DNA of 64,000 nt, taken from positions 35,712 to 99,711 of IMG/VR virus record IMGVR_UViG_3300033143_002040; one strand, given 5' to 3'. Below the pieces are notes generated by a model that did not search any database, was not told where the DNA came from, and saw nothing but the letters and a program-made list of their open reading frames with translations. The position numbers and the translations under genes were made by a program. Positions 3 through 37,674 of the stretch are shown piece by piece. Origin of the DNA: a virus. Its lineage: Duplodnaviria; Heunggongvirae; Uroviricota; Caudoviricetes. Every line of letters begins with the position of its first letter. Positions within the stretch are counted from its first letter, which is position 1.

Positions 3-2855
3 TTTTATTTAGAAGATCCGAAAGGAAAATTCAGAAGCATTCATGGTGATCCTCTAATAAAGATCGAATGCGGTTCAATTGGTGAACTCAAGAAAATGAC
101 ACGTATCAATTCTCATAAGAAAAAGTATGAGTCAGATATTAAACCCATCAATAAAATTCTTGAAGCACACTATAAGCACTTAGACACAGCAAATCTAAAC
201 ATTGCCTTTTTCGATATTGAGACTGATTTCGATAAAGAACTAGGTTACAGTTCTCCAGAAGACGCGAACAATAAAATTCTCTCAATCGCAGTACACTTGC
301 AGTGGTTAAATCAAACAGTTTGTCTTGCATTGCCGCCTGAAGGCATGTCAATGGATGATGCAAAAGTTATTGCTGATGAAGTCGGTAATACAATTTTGTA
401 TCACGAAGAAACAGATATTCTCGATGCGTTTCTCACACTGATTGAAGATGCAGATGTTTTGAGTGGCTGGTTCAGTGAAGGTTATGATATTCCTTACACA
501 GTAAATCGTATCATAAAGCTAATGGGCCGGCATGAAACTCGACGCATGTGTTTGTGGGACAAACAACCAAAGCCAAGAACATTTCTGAGGGGCGGCAAAG
601 AAAGCCAAACGTATGAGCTAGTCGGTCGAATTCATTTTGATTATCTTGCATTGTACAAGAAATATACATATGAAGAACGACACAGCTATTCACTAGATGC
701 TATTGGTGAGGTTGAAGTCAATCAGCGTAAAGTTCCATATGAAGGAACGCTAGATGAATTGTACAACAATGATTTTAAGAAATTCTTAGAATACAACATT
801 CAAGATACAGAACTACTTAACGAGCTTGATAAAAAGTTGCAGTTTGTAGCGTTAGCTAGCAGCATCGCACATGGAAACGGAGTTCTTCTGCCTCGCGCAA
901 TGAGCGCAGTAGCACTTACTGAGCAAGCTATTATCGTTGAAGCGCATGAGCGTAACATGAAAGTACCTGATCGTGAACACAGTAGTTCAGATGATCTAGC
1001 TGCTGCTGGTGGCTGGGTACAATATCCGAAGAAGGGTTTACATCGTTGGATCGGAAGTAGTGACTTAAGCTCACTGTATCCATCTGTAATTCGTTGTCTT
1101 AACATGAGTCCAGAAACTATTGTTGGGCAATTGCGCACAGATCAAACTAATAGAGAGATTTACGCGCATCTTGATGCAGCAAAATCTAATACTTTTTCTG
1201 GATGGTGGAATGACAGATTCAATACAATTGAAATGGATGATTTTCTTAACAACGATAATGTTACACGAAGAAAATTAGACTTAGAAGACGGAACTACAAT
1301 AGATATAACTGGTGCAGAACTGCGCCACCTTATTTTTGAAGGCGGAAATGATTGGAGTATATCTGCAAACGGAACCATATTTCGCAATGATATTGAAGGT
1401 GTAATCCCAGGATTATTGCGTCGTTGGTACAGTGAACGTCAAGTAATGCAAGCATTTAAGCGTAGTTATGATTCTATAGCAGATGTCAAAGAAGGCATCA
1501 AGCTAAATATAACGCAAAATATAGCAGATGAAATTAATGCTAATCTCACTCGCAAATATAACGACGATGACGTTAATTTCTTTAATCCGTACGATCCAGA
1601 CTTGACGTTTAGTATCACGCAAGCAAAGAAAAAAGCAGCAAGCAAAAATACAGAAGACTTGTATCAGTATTTACTCGGACACAATTTGTACATTGACAAG
1701 AATCTAAAACTTCGTCATAACAATATTGATGAACTCAAAAAGATTATATCATTTTGGGATAAGAGACAGCTTGTTAAAAAAATTAATCTGAACAGTCTGT
1801 ACGGCGGACTGCTCAATATACATTGTCGTTTCTATGACTTACGGCTCGGTCAGAGTACTACATTAACTGGACGCAGTATCGCGAAGCACATGGCCGCAAA
1901 GACAAACGAATTCTTAGATAACAGTTACGATCATACTGGCCGCTCAATTATTTACGGTGATACTGATTCAGTATATTTCTCAGCATATCCGATTTTGAAA
2001 GATGATATAGATAAAGGAGAAATCGTGTGGACGAAGGATAGTGTAATTGAATTGTATGACATTATTGCGCAGCAAGTAAGTGACACATTTCCAAAGTTTA
2101 TGAATGACACATTCAATACACCAAAGAAACGAAGTGAAGTTATTAGAGCAAGCAGAGAAATTGTTGGTGATACAGGGCTGTTCATTAAGAAGAAAAGGTA
2201 CGCTCTACTTGTATATGATGATGAAGGCAATCGCAAAGATGTCAACGGCAGTGATGGCAAACTCAAAGCAATGGGTCTTGACTTGCGTAGATCAGATACA
2301 CAGAAACGTGTACAGGAATTCTTAACAGGCATCCTTTGGCAAACACTACGATTAGAGGGCGAAGAGGCTGTTATCAAAGTCATACGAGAATTCAAAAAAG
2401 AATTCGATACATTGAATCCTTGGGAGAAAGGTTCTCCGACAGGCGTGAATAATCTTACAGCATATAACGATAAGCTAGAACGTGCAATGGAAATTAGATT
2501 GGGCGGTCGCATCGCAGAAAAGGTTAAGGTGCCAGGTCATGTTATGGCAAGTTTGAATTGGAACTCGCTCCGCGCATCACATAATGATTTGCACAGTACT
2601 AGAATATTAGACGGACATAAGGTATTAGTTTGCAAACTTAAACCACACAATGACTTTCAAAAAACGTCAGTTGCTTATCCTGTAGATGAACCACATCTTC
2701 CTGATTGGTTTATAAATTTACCATTTGACGAACAAGCAATGATGCAAGCCAACGTCGATAAAAAAGTGGAGAACTTACTTAATGTTTTAAAGTGGGACCT
2801 CTCTCGCACATCACCACAAGCAGAACTCATGGAAACACTTTTTGATTTTAGTTGA
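3..2855 (+). CDS. gp43: Family-B DNA polymerase (T4 gp43-like); reading frame is open to nt 3, so the true N-terminus lies upstream of the window
   Basis: Exo I motif FDIETD near N-term; polymerase motif YGDTDS; LSGWFSEGYDIPYTVNRIIKLMG parallels T4 FTGWNIEGFDVPYIMNRVKMILG; in T4 the Exo I motif sits ~aa 110 whereas here it is ~aa 40 from the listed ATG, and the frame upstream of nt 96 has no stop. Confidence 0.9.
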   Translation, partial: FYLEDPKGKFRSIHGDPLIKIECGSIGELKKMTRINSHKKKYESDIKPINKILEAHYKHLDTANLNIAFFDIETDFDKELGYSSPEDANNKILSIAVHLQWLNQTVCLALPPEGMSMDDAKVIADEVGNTILYHEETDILDAFLTLIEDADVLSGWFSEGYDIPYTVNRIIKLMGRHETRRMCLWDKQPKPRTFLRGGKESQTYELVGRIHFDYLALYKKYTYEERHSYSLDAIGEVEVNQRKVPYEGTLDELYNNDFKKFLEYNIQDTELLNELDKKLQFVALASSIAHGNGVLLPRAMSAVALTEQAIIVEAHERNMKVPDREHSSSDDLAAAGGWVQYPKKGLHRWIGSSDLSSLYPSVIRCLNMSPETIVGQLRTDQTNREIYAHLDAAKSNTFSGWWNDRFNTIEMDDFLNNDNVTRRKLDLEDGTTIDITGAELRHLIFEGGNDWSISANGTIFRNDIEGVIPGLLRRWYSERQVMQAFKRSYDSIADVKEGIKLNITQNIADEINANLTRKYNDDDVNFFNPYDPDLTFSITQAKKKAASKNTEDLYQYLLGHNLYIDKNLKLRHNNIDELKKIISFWDKRQLVKKINLNSLYGGLLNIHCRFYDLRLGQSTTLTGRSIAKHMAAKTNEFLDNSYDHTGRSIIYGDTDSVYFSAYPILKDDIDKGEIVWTKDSVIELYDIIAQQVSDTFPKFMNDTFNTPKKRSEVIRASREIVGDTGLFIKKKRYALLVYDDEGNRKDVNGSDGKLKAMGLDLRRSDTQKRVQEFLTGILWQTLRLEGEEAVIKVIREFKKEFDTLNPWEKGSPTGVNNLTAYNDKLERAMEIRLGGRIAEKVKVPGHVMASLNWNSLRASHNDLHSTRILDGHKVLVCKLKPHNDFQKTSVAYPVDEPHLPDWFINLPFDEQAMMQANVDKKVENLLNVLKWDLSRTSPQAELMETLFDFS

Positions 2856-2881
2856 CTTTCCTTGCTCGTTTTGTTATAATT
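2853..2881 (+). promoter_or_regulatory. sigma70-like promoter (TTGACT-17-TATAAT) ahead of RBS AGGAG and the 2909 ATG
   Basis: TTGACT at 2853-2858, 17-nt spacer, TATAAT at 2876-2881; AGGAGAAC RBS follows. Confidence 0.55.
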
Positions 2882-2908: not shown

Positions 2909-3658
2909 ATGTTATCGGAAGTATTAACAGACATCCTCGCACAAACACATGGGCTAGGATTTATTGAAATGATGAAAATAGATAGTAGCGCAACTGAAAC
3001 AACGATTGCAGCTATCAACGACGACAAATCAGTTGTCGTATTTGGAAAACTTAATAGTCCGTTGACTGAACTAGAAGGTGTAGTAGGATTATCACGAATG
3101 GCAGTACTACAGGGTTATTTGAAATATCCACATTTTGTTGGGGATGATGCAACTATTGAAATCAAAACTACGCAGCGAGACGGTAGTGAAATCCCAACAG
3201 AGATTTATTTTTCTGCTAATGGTGGGCACGAATCTAGTTACCGCTTTATGCATAAAGACGTAGTGGAAGAGCAAGTCAAAGTACCACCTTTCAGGGGTGC
3301 AACTTGGGACGTTGTTATTACTGGTACAGATGAGATTATGAAGGATCTGAGCTACTTCAATGGAGTGTTAGGCGCGTTTGAGCCAACCTTTACTGTAAAG
3401 ACAGACGTTAATAATGATCTTAATTTCTATATTGGTAGCGGCCCGACTGACCGAGCTACGGTACCAGTTGCAAAAGCTGTGAACGGCACACTCACAGGCA
3501 ATCTTACATGGCCGCTCGTTGAAACGCTTGCTATACTTAAGCTTGCGAGTAAGGCAGATGATTGTATAATCAGCTTTAGTAACAAGGGTGTGATGAAGAT
3601 TGAAATGGAAACAGGCCTCGGCAGTTATGAATACTTACTCCCAGCAAGATCAATGTAA
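2909..3658 (+). CDS. hypothetical protein (249 aa), immediately downstream of DNA polymerase; function not recognisable (sliding-clamp guess not supportable)
   Basis: ORF with strong RBS and own promoter; no diagnostic motif seen. Confidence 0.6.
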   Translation: MLSEVLTDILAQTHGLGFIEMMKIDSSATETTIAAINDDKSVVVFGKLNSPLTELEGVVGLSRMAVLQGYLKYPHFVGDDATIEIKTTQRDGSEIPTEIYFSANGGHESSYRFMHKDVVEEQVKVPPFRGATWDVVITGTDEIMKDLSYFNGVLGAFEPTFTVKTDVNNDLNFYIGSGPTDRATVPVAKAVNGTLTGNLTWPLVETLAILKLASKADDCIISFSNKGVMKIEMETGLGSYEYLLPARSM

Positions 3659-4088
3659 AGTTGAATCATTTAGCGGAATATTTCGCTTCTTGTCTAACTT
3701 CCACCGCGCGCCTATGATGTATCATGGCATTGCATATCCAACATCAGAACATGCATATCAAGCCGCGAAGACATTAAACGAAAATTCACGAATGAATATT
3801 TCGATACTAGGCACGCCATATGAAGCAAAAAAGTACGGCAAAACAGTTAAGCGACGGTCTGATTGGGATGAAGTAAAATTAGAAGTCATGACGGAAATTG
3901 TACGTGCAAAATTTATACAAAATCCGTCACTAAGAGAAAAATTACTTGCAACGGATGATGCTATCCTAGAAGAAGGAAATACTTGGGGTGACACATACTG
4001 GGGCACATGTAAAGGCGAAGGCGAGAATCATTTAGGAAAAGTCTTAATGGATTTGCGTAATAACCTAAATACTAATACAGAGGAATAA
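3627..4088 (+). CDS. NADAR (YbiA/DUF1768) family N-glycosidase / ADP-ribosyl-processing enzyme
   Basis: VESFSGIFRFLSNFHRAP...YPTSEHAYQAAK aligns with E. coli YbiA INFYSTSDDYGDFSNFAAWP...WPTSEHYFQAQK; start chosen at internal Met (MNTYSQ), ORF track start 3600. Confidence 0.8.
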   Translation: MNTYSQQDQCKVESFSGIFRFLSNFHRAPMMYHGIAYPTSEHAYQAAKTLNENSRMNISILGTPYEAKKYGKTVKRRSDWDEVKLEVMTEIVRAKFIQNPSLREKLLATDDAILEEGNTWGDTYWGTCKGEGENHLGKVLMDLRNNLNTNTEE

Positions 4089-4091
4089 ACA

Positions 4092-4454
4092 ATGAAAAAA
4101 GTAACAATTAATCAAAACGAACTCCTAGAAATTTTGCGAGAGAATCGTGATACGCATGAAGCAGACTATAAAGATGCTTATGAAGGGTACTTAGTAACTT
4201 GCGGAGAAACTCTAATGAAGTTAATGGAGGAATTCAAAGCTGGCGAACGTGAAACAGTACAGTGGACTGAGTTCCCGCCACAGAGTCAAGTTAAGGACTA
4301 TGATCGTGTAATTCGTATGCTTGAGTTATCAGTTGATAATGAAATTGAATTGACGGCAGACGAGTTTGCAAATTTCGTACAAGACGATTGGCACTGGAAG
4401 GAAAACTGGACATTCACTAATTCTAACTATATCAGCAAGACGAGAGGGGTATAA
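4092..4454 (+). CDS. hypothetical protein (120 aa)
   Basis: tiled plus-strand ORF with AGGAA-type RBS. Confidence 0.5.
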   Translation: MKKVTINQNELLEILRENRDTHEADYKDAYEGYLVTCGETLMKLMEEFKAGERETVQWTEFPPQSQVKDYDRVIRMLELSVDNEIELTADEFANFVQDDWHWKENWTFTNSNYISKTRGV

Positions 4455-4696
4455 TGAATTCTATAGACTTTTGTTATTGGCTACAGGGCCATTTTGAAAT
4501 TAGTGAAACAACTGAATTGAATGAAAAGCAAGTTGAAATTATCAAGAATCATTTAAACCTTGTGTTCAAGCATGAGATTGATGGCATCTATGAAAAGGAT
4601 GAATTACAAAAGATACATGACGGCGGCACGGGTGGGCCAGGCGAGTTTACCCCGACGGTGCACACTTCACCAAACGATATAAAAATAAGATGCTAA
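4454..4696 (+). CDS. hypothetical protein (80 aa)
   Basis: ATGA-coupled to upstream ORF. Confidence 0.45.
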   Translation: MNSIDFCYWLQGHFEISETTELNEKQVEIIKNHLNLVFKHEIDGIYEKDELQKIHDGGTGGPGEFTPTVHTSPNDIKIRC

Positions 4697-4697
4697 T

Positions 4698-6227
4698 ATG
4701 AGAGATTTAACAGTAGGTAAAAAAGACTATGCATTATTCTTGCCAGCGATAAGTGGCTTCTACACAGAAGTACTTGGTCGCTGTAGGAATTTTCCAGATT
4801 ACCTGCCGCCTGATAGGACACCTAAGGGTTTTGAAAATGGTATGGAAGGTCTTGATTTCTTCAACGAGGATAAGGGATATTTCTATTACGATGTGGGTTT
4901 GTATTCAGCAGGACACGCATACTTAGACGAAGAACGTACTAATAAATTTGAGTGGATGATTCAAGAGCGCGATAAGAAAAAGACTACGCTCTTGGGTGAT
5001 TCAGGCGGGTATCAAATCGGCAAAGGTGTTATTAAATTTGATTGGGAACACTTCTATGAAAAGAAAGGTGATCCAGGTTACATCGGCAAAGCAGATAAAA
5101 TGCGAGCAGATATTCTTCATTGGCTTGAATACACGGCTGATTGGTCACTAACACTTGACGTACCTACATGGGCGTACATGGAAGAAACAGCAAGAGAACG
5201 CACAGGGTTGCGCACATTCCAAGAATGCTTAGATGCAACATTATTTAATCTCGATTATTTTGTTGAGCATAGAGAAAACAAAACAAAGTTCCTCAACGTA
5301 CTTCAAGGTACAACGTGGGATGATGCAAACACTTGGTACGACGCCGTAAAGGACTATCCGTTCGAAGGTTGGGCAATGGGCGGCAATAATATGCGCGACA
5401 TAGAAATCGCCCTTCGGCGTCTTATTATTATGCGGGACGAAGGGTACTTAGAAGGTAAAGATTGGATTCACTTCTTAGGAACTTCTAAACTTGAGTGGGC
5501 AGTAATGCTAACTGGTGTACAACGTGAATTGCGTAAGCACGTAAATCCGAATGTAACAGTCAGTTATGATGCAGCAAGTCCATTCATCGCAGCAGCAAAC
5601 GGCCGCATGTATACATATAATTCTTTGTTATGCGACAAACTTAGCTATGTGATGGATAGGGGATTTGACGGTAGACAATTAGCTCATAGTGATATTCCGT
5701 TTCCGTTTGAAAGTGAAATCGGACGGCGGTTAACAGTCGGTGATGTTTGTCACTACGGTAAAGGTGATCTTAACAAGCTTGGCAAGGTCACTAACTCAGC
5801 TTGGGATTCGTTTACTTATACAATTCTAGGAGCGCACAATTGCTACGCGCACATACGCGCAGTACAACGCATCAATCACCTTAGTGACTTAGAGAGTATG
5901 CGATTCGATCCAGATTGGAGAACATGGACAAAGACAAAGCGCAAATCTAAAGCAGCAGAAATGTCTTTTTGGGTTCCGCGAAATTTGTTGTACTTCAATA
6001 ATTTTATCAAAGAACTATTTGTATCGGACAATCCTATGCAGATGCTAGATGATGCTTCACCATTACTTCAAGAAATGACTAATCAGAAATATATCGACGG
6101 CAACACAGCATTATTTCAAGATTTGTTCGGAGATGAGAATGATAATGAAGTTATAACTGGCGAAGATTATGGACGCGAAGATGATGTACTTGATGCACTA
6201 GAAAGAAAACTGAGGAATGAAAACTAA
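4698..6227 (+). CDS. tRNA-guanine-transglycosylase-superfamily protein, DpdA-like putative DNA 7-deazaguanine transglycosylase
   Basis: LLGDSGGYQIGKG matches the TGT catalytic LTDSGGYQ motif; C-terminal Cys/His cluster (CHYGKG...AHNCYAH) in the position of the TGT Zn site; QueD/QueE homologs nearby. Confidence 0.6.
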   Translation: MRDLTVGKKDYALFLPAISGFYTEVLGRCRNFPDYLPPDRTPKGFENGMEGLDFFNEDKGYFYYDVGLYSAGHAYLDEERTNKFEWMIQERDKKKTTLLGDSGGYQIGKGVIKFDWEHFYEKKGDPGYIGKADKMRADILHWLEYTADWSLTLDVPTWAYMEETARERTGLRTFQECLDATLFNLDYFVEHRENKTKFLNVLQGTTWDDANTWYDAVKDYPFEGWAMGGNNMRDIEIALRRLIIMRDEGYLEGKDWIHFLGTSKLEWAVMLTGVQRELRKHVNPNVTVSYDAASPFIAAANGRMYTYNSLLCDKLSYVMDRGFDGRQLAHSDIPFPFESEIGRRLTVGDVCHYGKGDLNKLGKVTNSAWDSFTYTILGAHNCYAHIRAVQRINHLSDLESMRFDPDWRTWTKTKRKSKAAEMSFWVPRNLLYFNNFIKELFVSDNPMQMLDDASPLLQEMTNQKYIDGNTALFQDLFGDENDNEVITGEDYGREDDVLDALERKLRNEN

Positions 6228-6564
6228 TAATTCAAAAATACTTATTCCTATTGTTAGGAAACTCTATCCAAACATGATAGCTGATATGATTACGAAAGTT
6301 CAGCCGATGCAAGGCAAAACGGGTTCAATCTTTAGCCTGAATATAGAAGATTCTATAATTAATCCTTGGTCAGAATGGCGTAGAACAACAAGTTTATGGC
6401 CGCGTGAATCAATTACAGGAAAATGGATTGTTGGCCGCATCAACAAACGTGGACGGAATGTTTGGGGTGGCGGTGGTATGCAAGGTAAGGCTACTCGCAA
6501 ACGACAATTCGCAACAAACAAAGAATTATTTGCATTAAAATTAAAAGGTAATAGCGATGAGTGA
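6217..6564 (+). CDS. small protein, KEYFKKKLxG-family (subfamily with PR(K/E)SITGK box)
   Basis: WPRESITGKWIVGRINKRG ... NKELFALKLKGNSDE. Confidence 0.55.
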   Translation: MKTNNSKILIPIVRKLYPNMIADMITKVQPMQGKTGSIFSLNIEDSIINPWSEWRRTTSLWPRESITGKWIVGRINKRGRNVWGGGGMQGKATRKRQFATNKELFALKLKGNSDE

Positions 6565-6955
6565 TTTATATATTGTTGATTCTGGAACTGTTACTACTGG
6601 TAACGTATTAACATATACCACCACTAATACGGGTTCTATATGGGTCGCGCATGAACCATTAGCTCCGCCACCGCGGGTAAGCCCAATTCCGCCGCCCGTG
6701 CTTGATCCGTTTATCAAGAGGGAGTTTTGGGATGATGTAGAATGGAAAGAATATACTTCTTACATGCCGCGGAAATCAATTACAGGTAAGATTATTATAG
6801 GAAAAATGCATAAGCGTAGTAAAAAAGATATTATAAAAGGTGGAACTTATCATACATCAAATGTTACAAATACAATACTTGATAGAGCAATTCCTCATAC
6901 ACAATATGCTAAAACAAAAGAATTGTTTGAAGAAAAACTAAGAGGCAAAGCATGA
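6557..6955 (+). CDS. small protein, KEYFKKKLxG-family (PRKSITGK box)
   Basis: MPRKSITGKIIIGKMHKRS ... TKELFEEKLRGKA; paralog of 6217..6564. Confidence 0.55.
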   Translation: MSDLYIVDSGTVTTGNVLTYTTTNTGSIWVAHEPLAPPPRVSPIPPPVLDPFIKREFWDDVEWKEYTSYMPRKSITGKIIIGKMHKRSKKDIIKGGTYHTSNVTNTILDRAIPHTQYAKTKELFEEKLRGKA

Positions 6956-7257
6956 AACTCGGAGAATACAGAGTTGTGTATGGTGCATATTATAACTATC
7001 GTGCTGTACATGATACATCACATTGCGCAGACATTTGGACTGTAGAGGAACGCTGTCAAGTAACATTATTCGGATTATGTAAGCTGTGGGATTATTGGAG
7101 TGAGCATACAGAACCTAACTATGATGCTCAATACACTATACAATTTAAGAGTCCAGAGCAAGCATTTGAATATGTAGAACGATTATTAAACGGCAATCCT
7201 CGAAATACAACAATAAAGACAGTAGTAACAGAAATAAACCATGAACGAATCAATTAA
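6952..7257 (+). CDS. hypothetical protein (101 aa)
   Basis: tiled ORF, ATGA overlap with upstream. Confidence 0.45.
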   Translation: MKLGEYRVVYGAYYNYRAVHDTSHCADIWTVEERCQVTLFGLCKLWDYWSEHTEPNYDAQYTIQFKSPEQAFEYVERLLNGNPRNTTIKTVVTEINHERIN

Positions 7258-7768
7258 AAGAAATTACACAAACAGGAATGGTGAAGTTGCCGATGATGCA
7301 ATATACTTCACTGGCATCGAAGTCGAGAATACTCCACAACACGGTAAGAACACCCTATTCGTAGTGGGTATACAACCAGCTGAACAGATTGCTCGATTCG
7401 CAGCAGAACGAAAAATTAAACACATTTATCTTGGTGCTAACAAAAGTTTTCACATGATAGATGATTGGGAGCCCGTTATAGACGAGCTATTAGAACTAAA
7501 CTTTTGGGTTACATTAGATTTTCCAGTTCGGTGTCATAACTTTATTATGCGCACAATGGGGAATCATATGCGTAAGAGCAAATTTATTCCTATGATTTCT
7601 GTCGAGATACCGAACGTAGACATATATAATTACAACACCACAATCAAGATTGATGATATAGACATGGATCACTCAAACCCAGGTGTGTGGTGTCATAGTT
7701 TGCATAGCCTTTTGAATCGTGATAACTTTACAAGCTGGGATGAATACCAGGATGACGAAGCATTATGA
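7241..7768 (+). CDS. hypothetical protein (175 aa)
   Basis: tiled ORF. Confidence 0.5.
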   Translation: MNESIKRNYTNRNGEVADDAIYFTGIEVENTPQHGKNTLFVVGIQPAEQIARFAAERKIKHIYLGANKSFHMIDDWEPVIDELLELNFWVTLDFPVRCHNFIMRTMGNHMRKSKFIPMISVEIPNVDIYNYNTTIKIDDIDMDHSNPGVWCHSLHSLLNRDNFTSWDEYQDDEAL

Positions 7769-8130
7769 GCGGTTGCGGACGGCCTTTAGCAAAAGATGAG
7801 TGGTGGACTTTCTGCGGAGAAACAGATATGGGACAAACTGCTCCTGCTCTTTGTACAGAGTGCGGAGGTGAGTTTAAGCTTAAAGAGGTAGCTAACATGA
7901 TGGACGAACGAGCAGTAGAAGCAGGTAGACGAGCAGCAGAAACAATCGCAACAGATAAAGACCCAGGTGAAAAACACTTTATTTATCGCCTTGTAAAAAG
8001 TGCGTTTCGCATTCTAGGTTGTGTATTATTTATTATACTCGGCTTTGTTACTAATGAGATGTTATTGTGCTACGGAGCAGGCATGTTTTTTGCAGCAGAA
8101 GTTTTAGGCATCGCAGAGGAACTAACATGA
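7765..8130 (+). CDS. hypothetical Zn-ribbon protein with C-terminal transmembrane segment
   Basis: CGETDMG...CTECGG Cys pairs; hydrophobic C-term FRILGCVLFIILGFV. Confidence 0.45.
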   Translation: MSGCGRPLAKDEWWTFCGETDMGQTAPALCTECGGEFKLKEVANMMDERAVEAGRRAAETIATDKDPGEKHFIYRLVKSAFRILGCVLFIILGFVTNEMLLCYGAGMFFAAEVLGIAEELT

Positions 8131-8330
8131 TACATGCAAGTAACGAAAATTGGTTTGCATATCTAGAACGTGTTAGAAGGCATTTGCCAGAAGGATTTGA
8201 AGACGATTGTGTTGACGACGGAATTGCAGATAAGACTGGTGCATATATTTTTGTATCATTTATGAGAGGTGGTGCAGCACAAAGGTGTGCCGAAGACCTT
8301 GTACAAAAACTAGGAGTTGACGATGGCTAA
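8127..8330 (+). CDS. hypothetical protein (67 aa; internal start MIHASN chosen)
   Basis: ORF 8067..8330 overlaps upstream gene; internal Met abuts its stop. Confidence 0.35.
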   Translation: MIHASNENWFAYLERVRRHLPEGFEDDCVDDGIADKTGAYIFVSFMRGGAAQRCAEDLVQKLGVDDG

Positions 8331-8502
8331 TTGTACATCATGCGGAAGTGAAATTCCAGACGATCAAGGTAACTCTTGTTCAATGTGTTACGGCGACCCC
8401 GATCATGGTCACGATGGTTACTATCAAGCAATGCTAGATCAGCAATACGAAGAAGAAATGGCAAAGCAGTATCGTGAAGAATATAGAGAACGAGAAGAAT
8501 AA
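8317..8502 (+). CDS. hypothetical Zn-ribbon mini-protein
   Basis: CTSCGS...CSMCYGD. Confidence 0.4.
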   Translation: MTMANCTSCGSEIPDDQGNSCSMCYGDPDHGHDGYYQAMLDQQYEEEMAKQYREEYREREE

Positions 8503-8780
8503 TGGTAATAGAGATTGACGGCATTATCCATAACGGCAACCTTAAAACTGAATGGACTAAGTGGAGGGAAACATTTTGTTTCTTGCCACATAAAGACATT
8601 ACAGGAATATTTATCATGGGACTTATATGGTGTCGTGTGCAGGAATCTCGTATATATAAATATGAAAATGACATAGGTTATTACATATCGTCTAATTTAG
8701 GATATGTAGAGTACGCTAGAACGAAGAAAGATATTTTCTTACGTAGTCTCGCAGGAAAAGAATATAGGATAAAAATATGA
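8502..8780 (+). CDS. small protein, KEYFKKKLxG-family variant (HKDITG box)
   Basis: WTKWRETFCFLPHKDITGIFIMG ... TKKDIFLRSLAGKE. Confidence 0.5.
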   Translation: MVIEIDGIIHNGNLKTEWTKWRETFCFLPHKDITGIFIMGLIWCRVQESRIYKYENDIGYYISSNLGYVEYARTKKDIFLRSLAGKEYRIKI

Positions 8781-9310
8781 TTTATGAAGTTAAATATTGG
8801 CCTAACCCTTGTTTGAAGGAGGCCGCAAAAGATGTTACTGATTTGAGTCTTGAGGTATGCAATGACATAATTGCTAATTTATTTGAGACTATGTATACAG
8901 GACACGGCATGGGTCTTGCAGCAACACAATGTAACATACCGCTGTGTATTATGGTAATAGACACAACACAAATAGGCGGAAAGCTTAAGCAAGCATTTAT
9001 AAATCCTGTTATCAAAGAACTAACAGAAAAGAAAATCATTTCAGAAGAAGGCTGCTTAAGCTTTCCTGGAATTTTTGTGAAGATAGAACGCTGTGACGGC
9101 GTAGTAGTGGAACACACGACCTTGACAGGAGAGACAGAACAAGCTATACTAAATGGTGTAGATGCTATTTGCTTTCAGCATGAATACGACCACTTAAATG
9201 GTATTGTATTTTACGATCATTTGAAAGCAGCAAAGAGACAAATGATGGAAACGAAAGTACGTAAGAATGTGAAAAAGATAATAAGACTGGAAAACAAACA
9301 TGCGCATTAA
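8777..9310 (+). CDS. def: peptide deformylase
   Basis: GxGxAAxQ (GMGLAATQ), EGCLSFPG, HEYDHLNG motifs. Confidence 0.9.
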   Translation: MIYEVKYWPNPCLKEAAKDVTDLSLEVCNDIIANLFETMYTGHGMGLAATQCNIPLCIMVIDTTQIGGKLKQAFINPVIKELTEKKIISEEGCLSFPGIFVKIERCDGVVVEHTTLTGETEQAILNGVDAICFQHEYDHLNGIVFYDHLKAAKRQMMETKVRKNVKKIIRLENKHAH

Positions 9311-9788
9311 CATTAACAGACCACCTAAGCACGTTCGAAAAGAACAAGAGCGGATGGCTAGACAAGAGTGGCATAAGAAGTTTGCGTGGAAGGCTACTAA
9401 GGTAGATCATACTGATGTAGGACATAGAGTTGTCTGGTTTGAAAACTACTGGTGCAAGGAGAAAATTGGGCCGACACAAGGTGATAGCCCAGGAGACGGA
9501 CGATACTTCGAAAAATATTCTGAGAAAGAATACTTCAAGAAAAAACTAGATGGTGATTTTGATAAGCATGAAACAATGGTAGATGAGGCTACTGCAAGTT
9601 CAATAGCTAGTCAGATTCGCAATCAAATGAATAAACAGTATCCTAGCGGAGGCTTGCATAAAAAGGACGGGCCAAATTCAGGTGTTAACTTCAAGAAATA
9701 TGTAATTGGCAGAGCAGATCAAGATATTGAAGTTGAGTCAATTTTTCTCGGAGACGAAGAAGAAGATGGATGGGAGGAAGACAAATGA
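9300..9788 (+). CDS. KEYFKKKLxG-family protein (tandem paralog 1)
   Basis: ...VWFENYW...EKEYFKKKLDGDFDKHE. Confidence 0.55.
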   Translation: MRININRPPKHVRKEQERMARQEWHKKFAWKATKVDHTDVGHRVVWFENYWCKEKIGPTQGDSPGDGRYFEKYSEKEYFKKKLDGDFDKHETMVDEATASSIASQIRNQMNKQYPSGGLHKKDGPNSGVNFKKYVIGRADQDIEVESIFLGDEEEDGWEEDK

Positions 9789-10171
9789 AATTTAAGATAG
9801 ACAAACCGCCTGCGCATGTTACAAGACGAAAAAGAATTAATGCTAAACGAGAATGGCACACTAAGTTTGCATGGCTACCAACCGTAGTAGATGAAACCGA
9901 TATTGAATATAAGCGGGTATGGTTCGAGAAATATTGGCGGCAAGGTCACTGGGGTCCGTCTCGGATGGGAGATGCAAACCCTATGATATTTACAAAATAC
10001 TCCAATAAAGAATACTTTAAGAAAAAGCTTAATGGAGATTTTGATAAGGAAGAGATTGAAGCTGATACTAATGTTGGCTCAACAAGTAGCAGCCGTGCAT
10101 ACGTAAATAATCAAATACTAAAGAAAAGTGGGCCCCACATTCATAATCCATACAAAAGGAATACGGTATGA
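9770..10171 (+). CDS. KEYFKKKLxG-family protein (tandem paralog 2)
   Basis: ...VWFEKYW...NKEYFKKKLNGDFDKEE; collinear with 9300..9788 over its whole length. Confidence 0.55.
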   Translation: MGGRQMKFKIDKPPAHVTRRKRINAKREWHTKFAWLPTVVDETDIEYKRVWFEKYWRQGHWGPSRMGDANPMIFTKYSNKEYFKKKLNGDFDKEEIEADTNVGSTSSSRAYVNNQILKKSGPHIHNPYKRNTV

Positions 10172-10578
10172 AAGAACAAAGATTTATTTTCGTAACGTTT
10201 CAGAAAGAAGGCATACATTCTTATCCTGACGCCCCTGAGGGTGTAGAGTTTCTACGCCACCCTCATCGACACATATTTCATTTTCGTGTAGACATTGAGG
10301 TGTGGAATGATGATCGAGAGATTGAATTTATTTTATTCAAACGTGAACTTGAAGATCAATACAAGAAAGAAGTAGTTGGTCTCTCATCAGTACTTCAATT
10401 AAACAGCAAGAGTTGTGAAATGCTTGCAGATGATCTAGCAGAATACATACAAGATGCATACCCTGGCCGTGATCTTAAGATCGAAGTAAGCGAGGATGGC
10501 GAGAATGGTGCAGTCGGTTATTATCCTGCAGACCGTGAACAAGTACCAATTCTTTATCAACAAAGAGATATGTTCTAA
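10168..10578 (+). CDS. QueD-like / 6-pyruvoyl-tetrahydropterin synthase (T-fold) family protein
   Basis: HPHRHIFHFRVDIEV resembles the QueD HGHSFxVxLEI region; size 136 aa; the canonical CxxxHGH Cys is absent. Confidence 0.45.
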   Translation: MKEQRFIFVTFQKEGIHSYPDAPEGVEFLRHPHRHIFHFRVDIEVWNDDREIEFILFKRELEDQYKKEVVGLSSVLQLNSKSCEMLADDLAEYIQDAYPGRDLKIEVSEDGENGAVGYYPADREQVPILYQQRDMF

Positions 10579-11208: not shown

Positions 11209-11463
11209 ATGGCATTCGAAAATATAAAACAACAGAAAGTTTGGTGTATTCATTTTTGGGGCATGACACTAGAGGAAGGCCTGTTAATGGGCAAAGAAGG
11301 TGATGGATTTTATGTGCGTTTAGATGGTGCTGCAATAAATGACATCGAAATAATTAATGCTGATAATGTATTCTTTGAGAAAGAGGCAGGAGAAAGAGCA
11401 TTATTTAAAGCTAACTTAGCTGGTGATAAAAGGCCAGCAAATAAAGATATTAGAGACTTATAA
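11209..11463 (+). CDS. hypothetical protein (84 aa)
   Basis: tiled ORF. Confidence 0.4.
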   Translation: MAFENIKQQKVWCIHFWGMTLEEGLLMGKEGDGFYVRLDGAAINDIEIINADNVFFEKEAGERALFKANLAGDKRPANKDIRDL

Positions 11464-12584
11464 TGAAAATTTATATCATAGACCTTGAATCCGTTCCGAC
11501 ACGCTATACGTGTCAATGGAAAGAGCATATTCCAACTCTGCTGAAAAATGCAGCGACCTTGAGGAATAGGGCTGACGTAGAGATAGTAAATATCTCTGGA
11601 GGAGAAGCAGAGTTGAAAGCGACGCCTGGAGCTTTCTTAAACTTTGCGCAGACAAATGTGTATAAGAACAACCAACTAACACAAGTGTCTGAATTATTTT
11701 CTGAGGGCGAGGTCAATCCAGGCGACCAATTTATATTCACAGACGCATGGCATCCTGGGATTATGCAACTCAAATATATGAGTGAGTTGCTACAGATTCC
11801 CGTTGTGATACACGCACTGTGGCATGCAGGAAGCTATGACCCGCAAGACTTCTTAGGCAGACTTATCAAAGACAAACGCTGGACAAACAACTTTGAGAAA
11901 GCAGTCTTTCATGCAGTAGATTACAATTGGTTTGCAACTGACTTTCACATTGATATGTTCCGACGTAATTGTTTCCGCGAACCCTATCAAGGTTACTTCG
12001 CAGAACTTGATCCGCACGAAATCGAAACAAAGTATTGTCGCACAGGTTGGCCGATGGAATACATGGCTGACACGTTAGCTCCATATGCTAATCTAGAAAA
12101 GCGTGACTTGATTCTGTTCCCGCATCGTGTAGCACCAGAGAAGCAAGTAAGGATTTTCAACGAATTAGCAGAAGCACTTCCGCAGTATGAATGGGTTGTG
12201 TGTCAAGACAAAGAACTAACTAAGCATGAGTTTCATACATTGCTTGGTGAAGCTAAGATGGTCTTTAGCGCAAACTTGCAAGAAACGCTAGGCATTTCTA
12301 CTTGTATTGAGGGACCGCTAGTAGGTGCGCTACCGTGTGCTCCGAATCGCTTAAGCTACACAGAAATCTTTGCAGGACACGAAGAATTTTTATATCCAGA
12401 TGAATGGACTAGGAGTTACGATAAGTTCGACGCAAACAGAAAGAACTTAGTTGATCGCATAGAAGATATGATGCAGAACTATGATGCAGCAAAGGCACAT
12501 TTGTATTCTTACAACCAAAACCAGATTCCGAAGTTCTTTGGGTTCGATGCAGCGATAGAAGTTATCTTCAAGGAAGATGACTAA
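11463..12584 (+). CDS. hypothetical protein (373 aa); weak resemblance to GT-B glycosyltransferases such as T4 beta-glucosyltransferase (MKIxII ... IFTD)
   Basis: N-term MKIYIIDL and QFIFTDAWHP versus T4 beta-gt MKIAIINM and YYLFTDIRLP; resemblance only. Confidence 0.5.
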   Translation: MKIYIIDLESVPTRYTCQWKEHIPTLLKNAATLRNRADVEIVNISGGEAELKATPGAFLNFAQTNVYKNNQLTQVSELFSEGEVNPGDQFIFTDAWHPGIMQLKYMSELLQIPVVIHALWHAGSYDPQDFLGRLIKDKRWTNNFEKAVFHAVDYNWFATDFHIDMFRRNCFREPYQGYFAELDPHEIETKYCRTGWPMEYMADTLAPYANLEKRDLILFPHRVAPEKQVRIFNELAEALPQYEWVVCQDKELTKHEFHTLLGEAKMVFSANLQETLGISTCIEGPLVGALPCAPNRLSYTEIFAGHEEFLYPDEWTRSYDKFDANRKNLVDRIEDMMQNYDAAKAHLYSYNQNQIPKFFGFDAAIEVIFKEDD

Positions 12585-14436: not shown

Positions 14437-15351
14437 ATGAGCAATAAATATAAATACAGCGAAATATTTACTTCGATTCAAGGCGAAGGAACCTACTGTG
14501 GAACACCGACAGTTTGGCTTCGTTGGTTCTTATGTAATTTACAATGCAGCGGCTTTGGTCAGAAAATACCAGAAGAACGCAGTACACATATTTTACCATA
14601 TAAAGAATTCGACGTTAGCACTGTAAAGCGTATCGAAGATTTACCTGTTTGGGATTATGGTTGTGATTCTAGCTATAGCTGGGCGCGGAAATTCAAAGAT
14701 TTATGTCCTGCGCATACAGCAAGACAACTTGCACAGAAACTAGAAAACGAATTACGCAAGTTTGACAACAATCCTGACGGAAAATTCTTGCTAAATAATG
14801 AGCGCGAGCTAAAAGATGTACATTTTTGTATGACAGGTGGTGAGCCGATGCTTGAACGTACACAAGTAGGGCAAGTCGAGTTACTGCATGCGTTAGCAGA
14901 TAATGTGAACTTACCAAGATTTATTACAGTAGAGACAAACGGAACACAGACGCTAACAGATGAATTAGCAAAAACAATCTCGTCATACGTAGCAAGCGGC
15001 GGAGAATGGTTTTGGTCGTGTTCGCCTAAGCTATTATATACAAGTGGTGAGAAGCCAACTAAGGCAATTAAGCCTGCTGTAGTCAAAACGTATCAAGACG
15101 TTAGTGCGTTTGGACAACTAAAGTTTGTTGTAAGCAACAGACCAGAAGCATGGGATGAACTTGAAGAACGAGTTGAAGATTTTAGGAATGCAGGGATTGA
15201 GTGGCCTGTTTGGATAATGCCCGTTGGCGCGACAGTCGAATCACAACAAGACGAGGATGCTATTGCAATAATTGAGGAAACTATTCGTAGAGGTTATCAC
15301 GTTGCTACGAGAGTACATTGTTACATTTGGGGCAATCAGATAGGAACATAA
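14437..15351 (+). CDS. queE: QueE-like 7-carboxy-7-deazaguanine synthase (radical SAM)
   Basis: FTSIQGEGTYCGTPTVWLRWFLCNLQC matches the QueE signature; FCMTGGEPM SAM-binding motif; Cys spacing is atypical (CNLQC ... distant C). Confidence 0.65.
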   Translation: MSNKYKYSEIFTSIQGEGTYCGTPTVWLRWFLCNLQCSGFGQKIPEERSTHILPYKEFDVSTVKRIEDLPVWDYGCDSSYSWARKFKDLCPAHTARQLAQKLENELRKFDNNPDGKFLLNNERELKDVHFCMTGGEPMLERTQVGQVELLHALADNVNLPRFITVETNGTQTLTDELAKTISSYVASGGEWFWSCSPKLLYTSGEKPTKAIKPAVVKTYQDVSAFGQLKFVVSNRPEAWDELEERVEDFRNAGIEWPVWIMPVGATVESQQDEDAIAIIEETIRRGYHVATRVHCYIWGNQIGT

Positions 15352-25476: not shown

Positions 25477-25727
25477 CTTTAGGTGAAATAGTAAATAAGC
25501 GTCAACTTGACCTTAGACTTGAAAAGGCAGAAGCAGAATTGCAGTCTGCCTTAAGAGTGCTTGACTACTTGCTAAAAGAATCGGCCGCGACATTGTTTGG
25601 ATATGAGCGTAAGCCGAATCATAAAGAACGTTGTTATGCTAACGCCAAGTCACTTGACGTAGCACACGAAAAAATTGAGAAGTGTAAGAAAGAATTGTTT
25701 CAATTCAAATTGAAACACGGTGAATGA
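25473..25727 (+). CDS. small protein with KEYFKKKLxG-like C-terminus
   Basis: ...CKKELFQFKLKHGE. Confidence 0.4.
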   Translation: MTLGEIVNKRQLDLRLEKAEAELQSALRVLDYLLKESAATLFGYERKPNHKERCYANAKSLDVAHEKIEKCKKELFQFKLKHGE

Positions 25728-25737
25728 GAGAAGAAAG

Positions 25738-37128: not shown

Positions 37129-37674
37129 TTATTGTAATGGGACATACGGAGTTGTTCGACGCTGATAAGTGCAACGATCATACAGAAGGTCTAGTTGTGT
37201 ATCATGCATTGGAAATACTACGCCGCTATCAACGATATGCCAATCCTCTATAAGTGGTGGAGGGAAATATGCATCGCCATCAAATTCTTGATGAATAACT
37301 GTAGCATAAATTTTCTGCGTATGTGGCATAGCTTGCTTATAAATCTCTGCGCCTCCAGCGATCATTATTTCATTATCTTTTGCAACGAGTTTCGCTGCAA
37401 ATATTGCTTTAGATACTTCGTGAAATATCTTAACATCTGGGTGATCTACAGTATAGTCTTTATCTCTAGTGAGCAAATATGTTGTCCGACCCATGAGAGG
37501 TCTATATTTTTCAGGAATTGATTCATACGTCTTGCGACCCATTATAACAATTTTGTCCATTGTTACTGCTTTGAAATATTCTAAATCTTCTCGTATGTAC
37601 CAAGGAATTTCATTTCCTGATCCGATAACGAAGTTGTGAGAAAAGGCTACAATTATACTTACAGTCATATACAT
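37129..37674 (-). CDS. frd: dihydrofolate reductase
   Basis: VIGSGNEIPW, IMGRKTYESIP, LLTRDKD, IAGGAEIY motifs. Confidence 0.85.
   Translation of the reverse strand: MYMTVSIIVAFSHNFVIGSGNEIPWYIREDLEYFKAVTMDKIVIMGRKTYESIPEKYRPLMGRTTYLLTRDKDYTVDHPDVKIFHEVSKAIFAAKLVAKDNEIMIAGGAEIYKQAMPHTQKIYATVIHQEFDGDAYFPPPLIEDWHIVDSGVVFPMHDTQLDLLYDRCTYQRRTTPYVPLQ

Follow-up and report, generated by a model that had tools for sequence, protein, structure and literature searches.

AdfN of phage T4 (gp30.3; Pfam Phage_30_3) was the first phage NADAR described as acting against the DarT1 toxin, and its action is limited to the T-even phage context (PMC11257639). A second phage protein, NADAR^Bas32 of the T5-like Escherichia phage IrisVonRoten (Markadamsvirinae), restores phage growth on DarTG1 cells and neutralizes DarT1 (Johannesman, Carlson, LeRoux, PMC11257639). 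All NADAR subtypes tested, including those of the YbiA type, remove ADP-ribose from guanine in vitro (PMC11125620); RNA substrates are covered in PMC11833690, and cytidine adducts are mentioned in PMC12945103. However, the in vitro activity of E. coli YbiA and T4 gp30.3 is not matched by protection of uninfected cells from DarT1 (PMC11257639, PMC11125620), and therefore specificity in vivo cannot be read from sequence. The superfamily has been divided by de Souza and Aravind at the position of E125 in the Phytophthora nicotianae protein, with Glu in the YbiA branch, Asp in the BC4488/DarT1-linked proteins, and His in the T4-type phage NADARs (quoted in PMC11543638). We describe here a NADAR gene from a large phage and compare it with these systems. 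The window is the whole 64-kb stretch of phage DNA that was analyzed. A nucleotide search of positions 3000 to 7000 against GenBank phages gave no match, and the lineage is uncultured.

A phage NADAR gene with an intact active site

The gene (Table 1) is a genuine, intact, phage-borne NADAR gene, as the sequence-only reading had proposed from its likeness to YbiA. The open reading frame begins with ATG, ends with a stop codon at 4086-4088, and shares its first 32 nt with the 3' end of the upstream gene. A start at the in-frame TTG at 3600 would lengthen the product by 9 residues, but homologs begin at the Met equivalent to the ATG. In profile searches the product matched the Pfam family NADAR (PF08719; DUF1768) with 98.6 bits (cutoff, 35.1; E = 5.8e-28) over profile positions 17 to 162 of 163, and it matched PHROG 1017 with an E value of 3e-46. 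It also exceeded, by a small margin, the cutoff of NCBIfam TIGR02464 (riboflavin biosynthesis intermediates N-glycosidase; 86.3 bits, cutoff 73.7). E. coli YbiA (PDB 2b3w; 41% identity; E = 4.7e-22) is the best PDB match by both sequence and fold, with FRFLSNF of the phage protein aligned to YGDFSNF of YbiA and PTSEHAYQAAK aligned to PTSEHYFQAQK. The AlphaFold (AF2) model (pLDDT 89.9) has the NADAR fold, a helical core with two small flanking beta-hairpins, and its only PDB fold matches at an E value of 0.001 or below in Foldseek were YbiA (2b3w; TM score, 0.76) and the P. nicotianae NADAR (8bau; TM score, 0.69). The protein consists of the core only, without extensions, and its pI of 6.1 is slightly acidic compared to 7.9 to 9.4 for the Bas32, T4, and YbiA proteins. 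The GC content of the gene is the same as that of its flanks, and the gene is under purifying selection.

The catalytic Glu and Asp residues, whose conservation had been proposed as a check of the assignment, are kept. All of the residues for ADP-ribose binding and catalysis (E41, K48, R77, W80, E116, D122, and W125) are retained and are invariant in 32 homologs of 50 to 87% identity; E41, K48, E116, D122, and W125 are also invariant in the seven syntenic copies for which the sequence was inspected. These five residues pair with E43, K50, E125, D130, and W133 of the ADP-ribose-bound P. nicotianae NADAR, the roles of which are described in PMC11543638. E116 lies in the motif LEEGN, whose counterpart in the alignment is LVE in YbiA and LKH in T4 gp30.3, and this Glu places the protein in the Glu-type YbiA branch. 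Its scores on two other profiles fell below the cutoffs, at 64.6 bits for NCBIfam NF053876 (NADAR family anti-phage protein DS32_2; cutoff, 240) and 18.8 bits for Pfam PF08010 (Phage_30_3; cutoff, 36), and it is thus not assigned to the T4 gp30.3 family.

Table 1. Positions of the NADAR gene and of neighboring features in the window
Feature	Position	Strand	Evidence
Family-B DNA polymerase, first gene of conserved block	96..2855	+	PF00136, PF03104; syntenic in 77 related loci
Promoter-like site, TTGACT-17-TATAAT with TG, upstream of 2909	2852..2880	+	11/12 consensus matches
Conserved protein, 249 aa, function not assigned	2909..3658	+	phrog_12062; upstream of transglycosylase-like gene in most related loci
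NADAR (YbiA-type) gene	3627..4088	+	153 aa; PF08719, TIGR02464, YbiA alignment, fold match
Protein, 120 aa	4092..4454	+	phrog_34511; no Pfam or PADLOC match
Protein, 80 aa	4454..4696	+	phrog_28500
TGT-fold DpdA-like protein, 509 aa	4698..6227	+	AF2/Foldseek, DSGGxQ, synteny
Conserved-module protein, 136 aa, possibly QueD-like (tentative)	10168..10578	+	65 related loci; no Pfam match
QueE-like radical-SAM (7-carboxy-7-deazaguanine synthase)	14437..15351	+	PA5oct QueE, 33% identity; PDB; Radical_SAM

Gene neighborhood and the putative DNA transglycosylase

The placement of the gene between a DNA polymerase and a transglycosylase, as first read from the sequence, is right. The interval also holds the genes for the 249-, 120-, and 80-aa proteins, the latter two of which separate the NADAR gene from that of the transglycosylase; in several relatives the NADAR and transglycosylase genes directly abut. 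We compared the window with 80 related IMG/VR loci and three cultured phages, a synteny set of 84 sequences. The 249-aa protein is present in 79 of these; its homolog in phage PA5oct, EST35_0314, is annotated as a virion structural protein (ESI-MS/MS annotation). The 80-aa protein had a tblastn match in the window alone. A gene for a 119- to 120-aa protein occupies the same spot, the gap between NADAR and transglycosylase, in some members of the sub-lineage described below (loci L090, L092, and L151/L152), a correspondence of position only. Judged from gene spacing, a transcription unit running from the 249-aa protein gene through the NADAR, 120-aa, and 80-aa genes to the transglycosylase is possible, and the promoter-like site in front of it is only suggestive, as promoter-like and terminator counts in the region were no higher than those in shuffled sequence.

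The 509-aa neighbor had no sequence match in Pfam (including PF01702), NCBIfam, PHROGs, or the PDB. Its AF2 model (pLDDT 87.9), however, has the TIM-barrel fold of tRNA-guanine transglycosylase (TGT), matching the Zymomonas mobilis enzyme in Foldseek with an E value of 3.7e-9 and a probability of 1.0. The motif D101-S-G-G-x-Q106, which holds the predicted catalytic Asp, is invariant in 40 homologs, as is Q203-G204. The gene anchors a module found in about 80 phage contigs, with syntenic FolE in 35 loci and QueE in 42. In the window, the putative QueE had PDB 4njg (QueE; E = 8e-4) as its best match, followed by 6nhl, with a weak match to Radical_SAM; by its sequence this gene marks a putative 7-deazaguanine pathway. 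The similarity of the 136-aa protein to a phage QueD/PTPS was weak (E = 0.006 in a single comparison). Vibrio phage 2.275.O carries QueC, a QueF-like gene, and a putative vitamin-uptake transporter (PF02592) alongside its transglycosylase homolog. The cultured phage PA5oct carries the module, and its DNA resists cleavage at G-containing restriction sites, indicating modified G (PMC12191111). Together, the modeled fold, the synteny, and the modified G of PA5oct support the description of this neighbor as a DNA transglycosylase, and it is probably a DpdA-like DNA 7-deazaguanine transglycosylase. No link to the DpdA3 phages (Cellulophaga phage phiST and Campylobacter phage CP220) was found by tblastn at an E value of up to 5. 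The protein represents a very large TGT-fold family without a profile-database match, probably an unrecognized DNA transglycosylase of PA5oct-like phages, and this identification is a more original by-product of the analysis than the NADAR itself.

Proposed function and alternative explanations

The explanation that we favor, with somewhat better than even confidence, is that the NADAR strips ADP-ribose from guanine and so counters a DarT1-type defense. The small, core-only, Glu-type enzyme would hydrolyze the N-glycosidic bond that joins ADP-ribose to the exocyclic N2 of guanine bases in the nucleic acid of the phage, with cytosine adducts possibly a further substrate. This removal would reverse the damage done by host ADP-ribosyltransferases of the DarT1 or pierisin/ScARP type, and replication could proceed. 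Expression appears to be joint with that of the replication genes and may start from a shared transcript just after the polymerase gene. Anti-DarTG counter-defense, one of the functions put forward in the sequence-only reading, is the best supported by homology, although the idea is not new for phages, having been published for AdfN (PMC11257639). The closest tested relative was bas32_0066 (44% identity over 141 aa; E = 3e-40 in a local database of six sequences), and YbiA-type proteins act on ADP-ribosylated guanine in vitro, as noted above. The Bas32 and Bas33 NADARs were located by megablast with a T5-like NADAR; we infer that bas32_0066, the sole NADAR found in Bas32, is the NADAR^Bas32 of PMC11257639. 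That paper calls the Bas32 and Bas33 copies identical, whereas we found 2 residue differences between them. Both the substrate and the counter-defense role of the window protein are inferred. The gene is most likely an ordinary accessory gene of the counter-defense type with no new mechanism, and its patchy occurrence across loci, together with a divergence that tracks the flanking genes, is consistent with an accessory role.

Alternatively, the protein could be a metabolic damage-control N-glycosidase that hydrolyzes ribosylamino-pyrimidines or similar nucleotides, like E. coli YbiA and its plant homologs, with no role in defense. We regard this as unlikely. In its favor, the identity to the housekeeping YbiA is about the same as that to NADAR^Bas32, and a Glu-type active site defines the YbiA branch (PMC11543638). 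The protein is slightly acidic and has no evident DNA-binding extension, such as the N-terminal one proposed to bind DNA in DarT1-linked NADARs (PMC11543638), and no DarG model of PADLOC matched it. The near-equal identity, the acidic core-only build, and the lack of a DarG match also speak against counter-defense, as does the fact that TIGR02464 is passed by the window protein and not by the Bas32 protein. However, the name of this model discriminates poorly. It gave 169.5 bits to YbiA, and because the likely anti-DarT1 Bas32 protein scored 66.3, just below the cutoff, TIGR02464 does not separate riboflavin-type from anti-DarT1 function. YbiA-type proteins themselves de-ADP-ribosylate guanine, and one of them is the antitoxin of an ART toxin (PMC11125620). 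No RibA/RibD, other riboflavin gene, or GTP cyclohydrolase was found in the window, and uneven occurrence in close relatives fits an accessory or counter-defense gene better than core metabolism.

It is quite unlikely that the enzyme degrades small ADP-ribose-derived signals or toxins, such as cyclic ADP-ribose isomers, and in this way blunts TIR/Thoeris-like immunity without acting on DNA. Such a function was proposed on the basis of context for most phage NADARs by Iyer, Burroughs, and Aravind (PMC9503650), and an acidic, core-only protein is compatible with a small substrate. Among 54 loci with related NADARs, neighbor clusters judged by eye to resemble Macro and SLOG occurred in 5 and 4, respectively. 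In contrast, Pfam searches of the larger genes and 50 small ORFs of the window found no ART, DarT, Macro, Nudix, SLOG, or KptA domain, and neither DUF4326 nor an NAD-salvage gene was detected there.

The neighborhood suggests a dedicated partner of 7-deazaguanine DNA modification, which would act on ADP-ribosylated 7-deazaguanine in the phage's own DNA or clear a by-product; we consider this very unlikely. In the window and in seven of the nine nearest relatives examined, the NADAR gene lies in the same slot upstream of the transglycosylase, and its divergence within this sub-lineage parallels that of the flanking genes, indicating vertical inheritance within one sub-lineage. A NADAR also lies within about 7 kb of Que/TGT-like genes in locus L131 and in Xanthomonas phage PhiXhv-12, and T4 AdfN was reported to be specific to Tevenvirinae, probably via modified DNA (PMC11257639). 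In the wider synteny set, however, a NADAR within 10 kb of the transglycosylase was found in only 1 of the 80 related, more distant IMG/VR loci. The other 79 lack it, as do PA5oct, Vibrio phage 2.275.O, Phosso, and two relatives within the sub-lineage itself. At least 523 phage records contain a NADAR. Que genes were near the NADAR in one of the 54 loci with related NADARs, no more than the few percent expected by chance (our own estimate, assuming that a NADAR is present somewhere in roughly half of the large phages [PMC9503650]). No neighbor family was present in more than 6 of these 54 viral contigs, so there is no conserved operon partner. The slot itself varies, and relatives have other, unrelated small genes in it. 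The QueD/QueE/TGT pathway does not need an N-glycosidase step because it works on free bases. The NADAR gene thus lies outside the conserved 7-deazaguanine module, a functional link to DNA modification is unlikely, and the handling of modified-base by-products, also suggested at first, finds no support in this distribution.

Under the favored reading, de-ADP-ribosylation of guanine in counter-defense, the position beside the DpdA-like transglycosylase would reflect an old insertion into a variable slot followed by vertical inheritance, not a common pathway. The two functions could nevertheless be complementary, as 7-deaza modification would guard against restriction and leave guanine N2 exposed to DarT1, which would make a separate eraser useful. 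Phage Bas25 has modified G and is still blocked by DarTG1 (PMC11257639 and PMC12191111 combined), and therefore modification is no substitute for an eraser. By analogy with T4 AdfN, the NADAR might even be an N2 eraser specialized for the phage's own 7-deazaguanine DNA, forming with the transglycosylase a two-layer guanine-protection cassette directed against both restriction and DarT1, but we find this improbable; in a weaker variant, the target may be an unrecognized guanine- or cytosine-directed ADP-ribosyltransferase defense of marine hosts. Two further candidates were dropped: a toxin-antitoxin pair or NAD-network cassette in the window, for which no partner appeared at Pfam sensitivity, and an RNA-repair link with RtcB (25720-26991), which lies at a distance of 21 kb and is independent of NAD.

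If the favored reading is true, the gene adds one more orphan, antitoxin-like phage NADAR eraser of DNA ADP-ribosylation. The published set, from T-even, T5-like, and Vequintavirinae coliphages, would grow to include the abundant uncultured lineage of PA5oct-like large phages as well as the Glu-type (YbiA-like) branch, which according to the AdfN paper is nearly absent from phages (PMC11257639). It would also suggest that 7-deazaguanine modification and ADP-ribose erasure protect guanine in two complementary layers. The practical value lies in the annotation of phage NADAR homologs, which in phage records are labeled "swarming motility protein," "GTP cyclohydrolase II," "riboflavin biosynthesis protein," or hypothetical.

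Comparison with known NADAR systems

The DarG1 antitoxins associated with DarT1 (E. coli C7 and Geobacter lovleyi) belong to the same superfamily and hydrolyze ADP-ribose from guanine N2, the chemistry predicted for the window protein. However, at the position of Glu116 DarG1 carries Asp, and its N terminus is extended by a segment that has been proposed to bind single-stranded DNA (PMC11543638). The window protein has neither feature and no adjacent DarT, and it is therefore not a member of the DarG1 group. AdfN shares the superfamily and the proposed job, and the Glu and Lys of SEHxxQxxK are conserved between the two proteins. The identity is only 28%, however, and T4 has His at the position of Glu116.

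YbiA is closer, with the same catalytic residues and the same core fold without extensions. It is an N-glycosidase of riboflavin intermediates that also removes ADP-ribose from guanine in vitro. In contrast to the patchy, phage-borne window gene, ybiA resides on the chromosome as a housekeeping gene of an operon under LexA control, and its product gives no protection from DarT1 (PMC11125620). On TIGR02464, YbiA scores twice as high as the window protein.

The nearest of the known systems to have been tested against DarTG1 is NADAR^Bas32. The two phages differ in backbone, a T5-like siphovirus for Bas32 and an unrelated PA5oct-like large phage for the window, and in their DNA, which is probably 7-deazaguanine modified in the window phage and is unmodified in T5-like phages (PMC12191111). 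The window protein is also more acidic and scores higher on TIGR02464 (86 versus 66 bits). The proteins themselves are similar in plan. Both are core only, with 149 aa for Bas32 and 153 aa for the window; both have a Glu-type active site, with the motifs xEGNTWGDTYWG and SEHAxQAxK in common; and both are encoded among genes for replication and nucleotide metabolism.

Identity and active site of the NADAR gene

The sequence-only reading had proposed a YbiA-like NADAR enzyme, and profile and structure comparisons bear this out. The protein matched Pfam PF08719 (E 5.8e-28, 98.6 bits, gathering score 35.1), NCBIfam TIGR02464 (86.3 bits, cut-off 73.7), and PHROG 1017 (E 3e-46), and PDB sequence matches were obtained to E. 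coli YbiA (2b3w, E 4.7e-22) and Phytophthora nicotianae NADAR (8bau, E 3e-6). For an AlphaFold model made with 32 homologues (pLDDT 89.9), YbiA (TM 0.76) and 8bau (TM 0.69) were the only significant fold matches in the PDB. The core motifs pointed out earlier are present as FRFLSNF and PTSEHAYQAAK, and it is beyond reasonable doubt that this is a NADAR-domain protein. An in-frame TTG at 3600 is a possible alternative start, but homologues start at the Met equivalent to position 3627. The first 32 nt of the ORF overlap the 3' end of the gene before it.

In the co-crystal of P. nicotianae NADAR with ADP-ribose, the ligand-contacting or catalytic residues are E43, K50, R79, W89, R93, E125, D130, and W133 (PMC11543638). 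The HMMER alignment pairs E43, K50, E125, D130, and W133 of 8bau with E41, K48, E116, D122, and W125 in the window protein, and the latter five, with R77 and W80, are invariant across 32 aligned homologues (50-87% identity). The seven syntenic NADAR copies whose sequences were read likewise retain the catalytic motifs. The catalytic residues are therefore retained, and the objection that the earlier reading had foreseen, their loss, does not arise.

Glu in the column of window E116 characterises the YbiA branch; DarT1-linked NADARs have Asp there, and T4-type phage NADARs have His (PMC11543638). Residue 116 of the window protein is Glu, and T4 gp30.3 has His in this column in a four-way alignment. 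The window NADAR thus belongs to the Glu-type branch, as do YbiA and phage NADARs of the Bas32 type. Membership in the T4 gp30.3 family was rejected because the Pfam score was below the cut-off and Glu stands instead of His. Membership among the DarG1 antitoxins was also rejected, as there is no DarT partner, no extension, and Glu where DarG1 has Asp; the PADLOC DarG models gave no match to the protein. DarT1-linked NADARs carry an N-terminal extension proposed to bind DNA, whereas the window NADAR, which is slightly acidic (pI 6.1), has no such extension.

The TGT-fold neighbour and the 7-deazaguanine module

The gene lies between a DNA polymerase gene and a putative DNA transglycosylase gene, as had been stated, with two small genes before the latter. 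The 509-aa product of that gene had no sequence match in Pfam, NCBIfam, PHROGs, or the PDB. However, its AlphaFold model (pLDDT 87.9, pTM 0.87) resembled Zymomonas tRNA-guanine transglycosylase (TGT; Foldseek E 3.7e-9, probability 1.0). D-S-G-G-x-Q and Q-G motifs, which we take to resemble those of TGT, are invariant across 40 homologues. Homologues in cultured phages, all annotated as hypothetical, occur in PA5oct-like Pseudomonas jumbo phages (39% identity), Sinorhizobium phage Phosso, and Vibrio phage 2.275.O. In Vibrio phage 2.275.O the gene is followed by QueF-like, putative vitamin-uptake transporter (Pfam PF02592), QueC, amidotransferase-like, and FolE genes; in PA5oct, QueE lies downstream. 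Across 80 IMG/VR contigs the recurrent order was polB, p249, TGT-like, p175, p136, p373, FolE, and QueE. The fold and this gene context, rather than sequence profiles, thus support the identification as a DNA transglycosylase gene, and a QueE-like gene is present in the window.

The family is very large, with more than 4,400 metagenomic homologues (E <= 1e-5) among 8,000 candidates scored, and it matches no Pfam, NCBIfam, or PHROG profile. In PA5oct-like and marine large phages it forms the anchor of a conserved 7-deazaguanine module. By tblastn it could not be connected with phages in which DpdA3 has been reported. PA5oct DNA resists restriction at sites that contain G and is attacked by modified-G-specific nucleases, and one paper on this modification notes only QueE and a PTPS for PA5oct, with no transglycosylase apparent (PMC12191111). 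The PA5oct member (EST35_0316, 8001-9623 of the retrieved locus) is probably the unrecognised DNA transglycosylase behind this modified G.

Features of the window discussed in the text
Feature	Position	Strand	Remark
Family-B DNA polymerase	96-2855	+	Upstream of NADAR
p249	2909-3658	+	Conserved 249-aa protein, upstream of NADAR
NADAR ORF	3627-4088	+	153 aa; ATG 3627, stop 4086-4088
Small gene	4092-4454	+	No assigned function; downstream of NADAR
Small gene	4454-4696	+	No assigned function; downstream of NADAR
509-aa TGT-fold protein	4698-6227	+	Downstream of the two small genes
Run of small ORFs	6217-6564, 6557-6955, 8502-8780, 9300-9788, 9770-10171		Motifs apparently shared
p175	7241-7768		Conserved module member, no assigned function
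Peptide deformylase	8777-9310
p136	10168-10578		Possibly QueD-like; weak evidence
p373	11463-12584		Conserved module member, no assigned function
QueE-like gene	14437-15351
MoxR-type AAA ATPase, DUF2201 metallopeptidase/VWA protein, RtcB RNA ligase	22239-26991		Genes in a row
DHFR	37129-37674	-
5,308-aa single ORF	46881-62807	-	Adjoins tail-fibre-like and HNH genes

FolE and QueC were not found in the window by tblastn, and its 7-deazaguanine pathway may stop at 7-carboxy-7-deazaguanine or lean on host enzymes. The p175 and p373 products could be tailoring enzymes. Several close relatives encode ADH_N (zinc alcohol dehydrogenase-like) proteins directly downstream of the TGT-like gene (L092 6829-7746, L094 7511-9350, L153 6903-8838, and L154 7425-8354), and a GFO_IDH_MocA-type oxidoreductase is also found downstream in L094/L095 and L153. 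Neither family was matched among the window proteins scanned; they could provide lineage-specific tailoring steps of the base modification. The PA5oct homologue of p249 (6918-7664 of its locus) is annotated as a virion structural protein from mass spectrometry. A position between the polymerase and TGT-like genes, as in most related loci, is odd for a virion protein, and p249 may be packaged together with the DNA.

In the run of small ORFs, which may be paralogues, some carry, for instance, ...W(K/R)EY/W...SITGK.I.G... and others HxKFAW...VWFE.YW. The first ORF of the run gave a hit to the N-terminal part of the T4 Gp23 major capsid protein profile (E 2.8e-7), a long way from any structural genes. 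The row of genes containing RtcB may be an RNA-repair or anti-defence cluster.

Distribution and history of the NADAR gene

NADAR was found in only 1 of the 80 related IMG/VR loci (L010), each examined with up to 10 kb of flank, and in PA5oct, Vibrio phage 2.275.O, and Phosso its slot is empty or holds other small genes. Conversely, among 54 viral contigs with NADARs 40-54% identical to the window copy, Que genes lay within 10 kb in one and a TGT-like protein in none, and no neighbour family was common to more than six loci. NADAR is not part of the conserved 7-deazaguanine module. A NADAR is reportedly present somewhere in the genome of about half of medium and jumbo phages (PMC9503650), so that co-location in about 1% of loci does not exceed what chance would give.

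The adjacency is a lineage-specific synteny. Among the closest relatives examined the gene is stable: NADAR occupies the same slot in contigs whose TGT-like proteins are 92, 79, 74, 67, 62, 58, and 54% identical to that of the window, and it is missing from two (59% and 57%). The gene may occasionally have been lost, or else gained later. NADAR identity among relatives drops from 83 to 55%, roughly in parallel with the flanking genes, and the gene does not differ from its surroundings in GC content. The stable slot, parallel divergence, and matching GC suggest an old insertion into a variable slot, followed by vertical inheritance under purifying selection.

Proposed counter-defence role and the known phage NADARs

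Of the NADARs studied experimentally, that of coliphage Bas32 is the closest (44% identity over 141 aa); it is taken to be bas32_0066 of Escherichia phage IrisVonRoten, which was located through T5-like homologues. With NADAR^Bas32, several phages grow again on DarTG1 cells, and DarT1 is neutralised also when no phage is present (Johannesman et al., PMC11257639). In vitro, ADP-ribose was removed from guanine by all NADAR subtypes tested, E. coli YbiA and a myxobacterial YbiA-like antitoxin among them (Cihlova et al., PMC11125620). This activity has been extended to RNA guanosine (PMC11833690) and to cytidine adducts (PMC12945103). Given this likeness and the activity of all tested subtypes, we rank first a nucleobase de-ADP-ribosylase serving as counter-defence, a reading that is on balance somewhat probable. 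YbiA and T4 gp30.3 are active in vitro yet do not rescue uninfected cells from DarT1 (PMC11257639, PMC11125620), so in vivo specificity cannot be told from sequence.

A metabolic role as a riboflavin-intermediate N-glycosidase is unlikely. The window NADAR is 41% identical to housekeeping YbiA, nearly as close as to NADAR^Bas32, and it passes the cut-off of TIGR02464, the model for that activity, with the Bas32 protein just below; however, the window showed no riboflavin genes. Slightly less likely is that the enzyme acts against small immune signals derived from ADP-ribose, the role proposed for most NADARs of phages (PMC9503650); Macro, SLOG, and Nudix partners were not detected in the window. 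Least probable is a dedicated link to the 7-deazaguanine system, against which speak the distribution data and the fact that the pathway works on free bases. The suggestion that the enzyme handles modified-base by-products lacks support on the same grounds.

DarT1 puts ADP-ribose on guanine N2, a position that 7-deaza substitution does not alter. In keeping with this, DarTG1 still blocks phage Bas25 (PMC11257639), whose G is modified (PMC12191111). Because N2 is left intact, the modification and a NADAR eraser would be complementary and not redundant, a plausible reason for both to persist that implies no shared pathway. That the enzyme is specialised for 7-deazaguanine DNA bearing ADP-ribose, and makes up a two-layer cassette for guanine protection with the transglycosylase, is likewise improbable.

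The Bas32 and Bas33 NADARs (L006 1501-1950 and L007 201-650) differ at 2 of 149 residues, whereas the AdfN paper describes them as identical (PMC11257639). Xanthomonas phage PhiXhv-12 encodes a 373-aa protein (L150 4438-5559, minus strand) with an N-terminal NADAR domain and about 200 aa without assigned function; by eye, it has an apparent Leu at the catalytic-Glu (E41) column and His at the E116 column. It adjoins an MmcB-like repair gene and a QueD (PTPS) gene, with a 568-aa TGT-like gene about 6 kb off.

By tblastn, at least 523 phage records in GenBank carry NADAR homologues, among them those of T5-like, Streptomyces, Vibrio, Xanthomonas, and Bacillus phages; many of the homologues bear the name "swarming motility protein" or "GTP cyclohydrolase II" or are just called hypothetical. 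The first of these names is also given to a 171-aa basic protein adjoining NADAR in related T5-like genomes, which showed no similarity to NADARs in local BLASTP. An anti-DarT1 role is already on record for phage NADARs (AdfN, PMC11257639), and the counter-defence function suggested for this real, intact gene is established for its relatives. Among these, bas32_0066 has the same size as the window NADAR and shares with it the EGNTWGDTYWG and SEHAxQAxK motifs.
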